Source: Escherichia coli (GTDB lineage: Bacteria > Pseudomonadota > Gammaproteobacteria > Enterobacterales > Enterobacteriaceae). From it: a DNA stretch of 64,000 bases. The notes under the pieces were generated by a model. It was given only the letters and a program-made list of their open reading frames with translations, was not told the origin of the DNA and ran no database searches. Positions 53,855-53,870 of this stretch are shown piece after piece; the stretch's first letter is position 1, and every line of letters starts with the position of its first letter. Both the position numbers and the translations under genes were made by a program. The stretch is taken from NCBI RefSeq assembly GCF_045037415.1, contig NZ_CP173438.1; one strand, given 5' to 3'.

Positions 53855-53870
53855 TGTGAGTGGTCGCACA
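53855..53870 (+). promoter_or_regulatory. candidate CRP binding site in tdc operon promoter
   Basis: TGTGAGTGGTCGCACA fits TGTGA-N6-TCACA; located about 65 bp upstream of tdcA start; tdc operon is known to be CRP-dependent. Confidence 0.55.

Follow-up and report, generated by a model that had tools for sequence, protein, structure and literature searches.

The closest described relative of the site studied here is the CRP site of the tdcA promoter (tdcAp) in Escherichia coli K-12. It ties the operon for anaerobic threonine/serine fermentation to catabolite repression, a link recognised in K-12 from the early 1990s on. In 1992, Wu, Patil and Datta reportedly observed a CAP footprint at about -43.5 and an IHF footprint at about -104. 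The tdc fragment also belongs to the 18-sequence set that serves as the classical benchmark for CRP motif finding, and its entry there appears to match the K-12 sequence. In annotation derived from RegulonDB and EcoCyc, the K-12 site is centred at -43.5 from the transcript start and at -71.5 from the start codon. Regulation of tdc involves CRP, IHF, and TdcR (PMC9426608, a secondary source); expression requires IHF (PMC10581059, PMC9426608), and tdcR is reported to act positively on tdc. Using cAMP-dependent genomic SELEX in K-12, Shimada et al. 2011 (PMC3105977) recovered tdcA, a RegulonDB CRP target, and in a cAMP titration transcriptome tdcB is among the genes expressed once cAMP is added (PMC9765429).

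Two further groups of sites serve for comparison. At canonical class II promoters, such as galP1 and mchA (PMC12360894), the CRP site overlaps the -35 region, no usable -35 element is present, and the -10 element is extended (TGn). tdcAp shares these features, but its CRP site is centred at -43.5, not -41.5, and it additionally depends on IHF and the LysR-type regulator TdcA. CRP-S sites (TGCGA-N6-TCGCA), which are Sxy-dependent, likewise are 16-bp CRP-type palindromes with one imperfect half-site. In the tdc site, however, the mismatch affects the outer base of the right half and not the diagnostic inner C/G; with neither C at position 6 nor G at position 17, assignment to the CRP-S class was rejected.

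The window analysed here, a stretch of 64,000 nucleotides of E. coli DNA, contains TGTGAGTGGTCGCACA at exactly positions 53855-53870, as read directly. We consider this element, with very little doubt, to be the cAMP-CRP activator site of tdcAp that drives tdcABCDEFG in a class II-type manner. Its half-sites TGTGA and GCACA enclose the spacer GTGGTC, and no strand is assigned to it; the assignment builds on the sequence, the RegulonDB/EcoCyc-derived annotation, ChIP-seq in EAEC 042, and conservation across 64 loci. The corresponding 22-bp site of CRP length is ATTTGTGAGTGGTCGCACATAT (53852-53873) with its dyad centre at 53862.5. Compared to TGTGA-N6-TCACA, nine of the ten core positions match; the one deviation is at 53866, where G stands in place of T. 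The tdcAp CRP site was already known, and its identification in itself is nothing new.

The regulated operon tdcABCDEFG occupies 53934-62714 on the plus strand, as deduced from open reading frames and from the annotation of strain SK1144, and begins with tdcA (53934-54872, plus strand, an ORF of 312 codons). BLAST over the whole window yields 99.99% identity to SK1144; an ungapped string comparison gave 35,862 mismatches, an artefact of a 1-bp indel, as BLAST revealed. Gene order in the SK1144 annotation is garL-garR-garK-rnpB, divergent tdcR, tdcA-tdcB-tdcC-tdcD-tdcE-tdcF-tdcG, and cyuP, and the gene assignment of the preliminary description was thus correct. The same holds for the location it had given to the site, AT-rich DNA upstream of the operon: the tdcR-tdcA intergenic region comprises 314 bp with 32.5% GC, compared to 51.3% in the whole window, and the ATG of tdcA at 53934 lies 71.5 bp downstream of the dyad centre. 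Region 53300-54100 has 100% identical counterparts in several complete E. coli chromosomes. Of 5426 complete genomes, 5392 contain this region, and 5387 contain the 61-bp core promoter at an identity of at least 95%.

Published evidence for binding concerns an identical sequence. Between 53833 and 53902, an interval covering the CRP site and the -10 element, the window is identical to K-12 MG1655. Alhammadi et al. 2025 (PMC12360894, Table S2) report a CRP ChIP-seq peak at tdcA in EAEC 042 with a score of 758. The motif given there, TGTGCGACCACTCACA (p = 3.5e-5), is the reverse complement of TGTGAGTGGTCGCACA; it is placed at -71.5 from the translation start, and the gene carries the RegulonDB flag for CRP regulation. 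Table S3 of the same study, built from RegulonDB and EcoCyc, lists for tdcA a CRP site at -43.5, the -10 hexamer TACACT, 'N/A' for the -35 element, +1 at K-12 position 3267093, an identity of 100% between K-12 and 042, and the asterisk that denotes detection by ChIP-seq. This entry was located via a flanking fragment in a machine-read version of the supplement, which contains OCR errors; a full-text literature search for TGTGAGTGGTCGCACA itself matched no paper.

We recomputed the published distances in window coordinates and obtained 53862.5 - 53906 = -43.5 and 53862.5 - 53934 = -71.5. Both are reproduced exactly, and the annotated tdcA CRP site is therefore TGTGAGTGGTCGCACA. Together with SELEX, the ChIP-seq signal on identical sequence, and the RegulonDB/EcoCyc annotation, this bears out the proposal that the tdc operon has a CRP site here. 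Of the two known properties of the operon named along with it, catabolite control and anaerobic induction, a CRP site accounts for the former but not for the latter.

The annotated transcript start, a G at 53906 on the plus strand, was transferred from K-12 position 3267093 via a gap-free alignment. The tdcA ATG of K-12 is located at 3267065, such that +1 lies 28 nt upstream and the leader measures 28 nt. The preliminary description had named a mapped start at a non-functional distance as the result that would speak against the site; the distance found, -43.5, instead speaks for the site, which there overlaps the -35 region. The -10 hexamer TACACT, marked as such in Table S3 of PMC12360894, occupies 53893-53898 (-13 to -8). 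The dinucleotide TG at 53890-53891 probably turns it into an extended -10 element, TGaTACACT (53890-53898, plus strand), whose hexamer has a counterpart in 62 of 64 orthologous promoters. At the place where a -35 hexamer would be expected (53870-53875, plus strand) the sequence ATATCC agrees with TTGACA in two of six positions, corresponding to the 'N/A' in Table S3 of PMC12360894; in effect, the tdcA promoter has no -35 element. The CRP site spans approximately -51 to -36 and hence takes the place of the -35 element, which is the class II arrangement. A generic scan for the sigma-70 consensus found no promoter at the position of the tdcA promoter. This does not speak against a promoter, because one that depends on an activator and lacks a -35 element cannot pass a two-hexamer rule.

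Conservation was studied in 64 tdcA loci from approximately 15 enterobacterial genera, including Escherichia, Citrobacter, Salmonella, Raoultella, Kluyvera, Enterobacter, Lelliottia, Trabulsiella, Yokenella, Pseudocitrobacter, Silvania, Cedecea, and others. They were collected by a TdcA search with one genome per species, and their TdcA proteins are 67-100% identical. In unaligned upstream sequences, a CRP-type site occurs 68.5-73.5 bp from the start codon in 63 of the 64 loci, or in 64 of 65 sequences when the window is counted. Within these 64 site-bearing sequences, the left half reads TGTGA in 63 cases and TGCGA in one (a Cedecea orthologue), and the right half reads GCACA in 59 cases and perfect TCACA in five, while the 6-bp spacer takes 18 different forms. 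TAnAnT follows exactly 22 nt past the CRP site in 62 of the 64 orthologous promoters.

The alignment reveals the same pattern. Identity to the window amounts to 99.7% and 98.4% in the two half-sites and to 75% in the spacer; outside the site, it drops to 59-66% in the immediate flanks, 54% in the segment between the site and the -10 element, and 44% further upstream. When the 160 upstream columns are ranked as blocks of five, the top seven blocks all fall within the half-sites. There are 17 invariant upstream columns, nine in the CRP site, three in the IHF core, and two in the -10 element (A53894 and A53896), and the GTGA/CAC bases of the CRP site are invariant across genera. Across the 64 loci the half-sites have been under purifying selection with a freely varying spacer. 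Such a footprint is characteristic of a dimeric protein that reads half-sites and is held at a constant distance from the polymerase. It also shows that the tdc promoter architecture, with CRP at about -43 and an IHF core at about -112, is common to the Enterobacteriaceae.

The motif by itself is a different matter. At the first glance it was described as consensus-like, which is justified for the core (9/10) and generous for the whole site, a middling match by position weight matrix. The 64-kb window holds four core matches when one mismatch is allowed, against 2.03 expected, and at least four were obtained in 14 of 100 shuffles. For the matrix we used 15 classical CRP sites of the Stormo-Hartzell/Lawrence-Reilly benchmark in symmetrised form and with tdc omitted to guard against circularity. 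The tdc site scores 11.5 bits and takes rank 11 among 63,979 positions, where 3.3 +/- 1.9 equally good positions are expected in a random 64 kb of the same composition. The matrix does pick real sites, since eight of its 11 top matches are intergenic, compared to 9.8% of the window. The pattern of TGTGAGTGGTCGCACA alone does not stand out from chance. As the motif alone is not significant, the case for the tdc CRP site is made by position, conservation, and published binding.

These lines of evidence also decide between CRP control of tdcA and the readings that would dispense with CRP or direct it elsewhere. A functionless palindrome arising by chance in AT-rich DNA would be in keeping with the roughly two core matches and three matrix matches of such quality expected per 64 kb. 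It was nevertheless ruled out by conservation and ChIP and retains a negligible probability: direct CRP binding is on record, and in about 15 genera the half-sites are near-perfect, the spacer is free, and the -10 spacing is fixed, whereas the flanks are conserved at 44-66%. Equally little credit is due to an FNR site mediating anaerobic induction, even though the operon is anaerobically induced and appears as FNR-activated in an expression table, and FNR and CRP share a TGA-N6-TCA core. On the same dyad, only five of ten positions agree with TTGAT-N4-ATCAA, the discriminating bases are of the CRP type (GTG/CAC) and not TTG/CAA, GTGA/CAC is invariant across genera, and it is CRP that was found to bind in ChIP-seq and SELEX; on these grounds of sequence and binding, the FNR site was rejected. 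Very improbable, though less so, is control of the divergent tdcR by the same site, in addition to or in place of tdcA. The site does lie within the divergent intergenic region, and Shimada et al. (PMC3105977) list tdcA among the targets whose opposite neighbour might be CRP-regulated. The centre, however, lies about 243 bp from where tdcR translation starts (53619), spacing is constrained towards the -10 element of tdcA, the site is intact in a lineage in which tdcR is a pseudogene, and RegulonDB gives it to tdcAp.

A closer rival accepts CRP binding and concerns the manner of activation: CRP might act mainly by bending the DNA in a CRP-IHF-TdcA complex and not by class II contacts via AR1/AR2. 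This model draws on the 2-bp displacement of the centre (-43.5) from the class II optimum, on the conserved IHF core some 110 bp upstream, and on the dependence of tdc expression on IHF. A 1992 paper from the Datta laboratory is also said to describe CAP and IHF as 'acting in concert', which we counted in favour of bending. Against this, the tdcA promoter lacks a -35 element, and the CRP site overlaps the position where one would lie. In 62 of 64 promoters, moreover, exactly the same number of base pairs separates the site from the -10 hexamer, and measured from this hexamer the offset from the canonical arrangement is only 1 bp. Spacing fixed in this way favours direct protein-protein contact over bending only, and we regard the bending model as unlikely.

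The documented features of the class II-type activator site are its motif, its distance from the annotated start, CRP binding in vivo and in vitro, the response of the operon to cAMP, and the constraint on half-sites and spacing. The contact mechanism, by AR1/AR2 with RNA polymerase, is suggested by the geometry, and the strain studied here presumably behaves like K-12. tdcAp displays overlap with the -35 region, a defective core promoter with an extended -10 element, and fixed spacing between site and promoter, all of which are features of class II. Relative to the canonical centre at -41.5, its CRP centre lies 2 bp farther from the annotated +1 and 1 bp farther from the -10 hexamer; thus, the exact contact geometry is uncertain, or the mapped start may be off by 1-2 nt. 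Reports on AR1/AR2 dependence of tdc were absent from the literature searched, a search that did not extend to the primary footprinting and mutagenesis papers.

The best-supported account of activation is as follows. In the absence of glucose, at high levels of cAMP, the imperfect palindrome TGTGA-N6-GCACA centred at -43.5 is bound by a dimer of CRP; the site covers approximately -51 to -36 and so stands in for the missing -35 element. From this position, CRP activates sigma-70 RNA polymerase on the extended -10 element TGaTACACT, probably by recruiting it in a class II manner, and transcription begins at 53906, 28 nt before the ATG of tdcA. IHF, some 110 bp upstream, and the LysR-type TdcA contribute further positive inputs.

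The IHF consensus match is located at 53788-53800 on the minus strand and was identified by direct reading against the consensus quoted in PMC10581059. Its sequence TAACTTGTTGATA is the reverse complement of WATCAANNNNTTR, agrees perfectly with the consensus, and lies about 112 bp upstream of +1. Positions 53789, 53796, and 53797 are invariant in the cross-genus alignment, and the best five-column block outside the CRP site begins at 53795. This conserved core is consistent with the reported IHF requirement of tdc.

Differences to K-12 near the promoter are an A/G polymorphism at 53903 (-3) and a few deviations upstream of -55. A larger difference concerns the divergent tdcR (53401-53619, minus strand), which we regard as a pseudogene based on the 'internal stop' annotation in SK1144 and on comparison of its translation with K-12 TdcR. 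The stop falls on codon 25, where K-12 reads ...HIFSRYL... and the window ...HIF*RYL..., and several missense differences were found as well. tdcR is thus a pseudogene here, yet the tdcA promoter is fully intact. Loss of tdcR may cause promoter output in this strain to differ from K-12.

This strain also lacks yhaB and yhaC. In K-12 (locus L002, 3055-4701) both genes lie between tdcR and rnpB; in the corresponding interval of the window (52836-53400) they are absent, and only two short annotated pseudogene fragments are present at approximately 52979-53145.

The imperfect right half-site is itself conserved. G53866 is retained in 59 of 64 sequences, although adjacent spacer bases vary and a T would create a perfect site. 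Speculatively, and with a rather low probability, G53866 may be kept because a sub-maximal site is selected, or because RNA polymerase or some other factor also recognises this base at about -40; as a separate matter of the same low standing, the tdcR nonsense codon beside an intact promoter may mean that TdcR is dispensable for tdc activation in many natural E. coli. If true, either kind of selection on G53866 would preserve the dependence of the tdc promoter on IHF/TdcA and high cAMP. A perfect TGTGA-N6-TCACA occurs at the orthologous place, centred at -71.5, in loci L024, L029, L030, L061, and L062, which belong to Raoultella species and two other genomes; the majority of genera have kept the imperfect GCACA half.

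Beyond annotation, the tdc site in this window is of little importance; it does show that a genuine regulatory site is recognisable from sequence alone. Other strong matrix matches were recorded in the window. The best of all, with 18.4 bits, lies at nlpI-yrbN/deaD (18173-18194); two are situated between garD and garP (47875-47896 and 47958-47979), and one each between argG and metY (7727-7748), between kbaZ and agaR (44234-44255), and between tdcG and cyuP (yhaO; 62764-62785). Genes at these five other intergenic places all appear in the lists of known or SELEX-predicted CRP targets by Shimada et al. (PMC3105977).

A second CRP-like palindrome, TTTTGTGATCCTCAACACAAAA (53346-53371, core 53351-53366), scores 13.45 bits, which is above the tdc site, and matches nine of ten core positions. 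No peak for it was noted in the ChIP listings. It forms a hairpin, flagged by the terminator scan, approximately 35-50 nt past the stop codon of tdcR.

Four loci of the comparative set deserve mention. L063 from Leclercia adecarboxylata, with a TdcA of 67% identity, is the sole TdcA-like locus without a CRP-type site at the expected distance. It is probably a non-orthologue or a diverged locus, and may represent a paralogue or a rewired promoter. L003, L038, and L062 are labelled 'uncultured Bacteroides sp.', 'Chryseobacterium sp.', and 'uncultured Clostridium sp.', respectively. All three carry enterobacterial tdcA loci together with the promoter, at 76-100% protein identity, and most likely are mis-binned or contaminated contigs.
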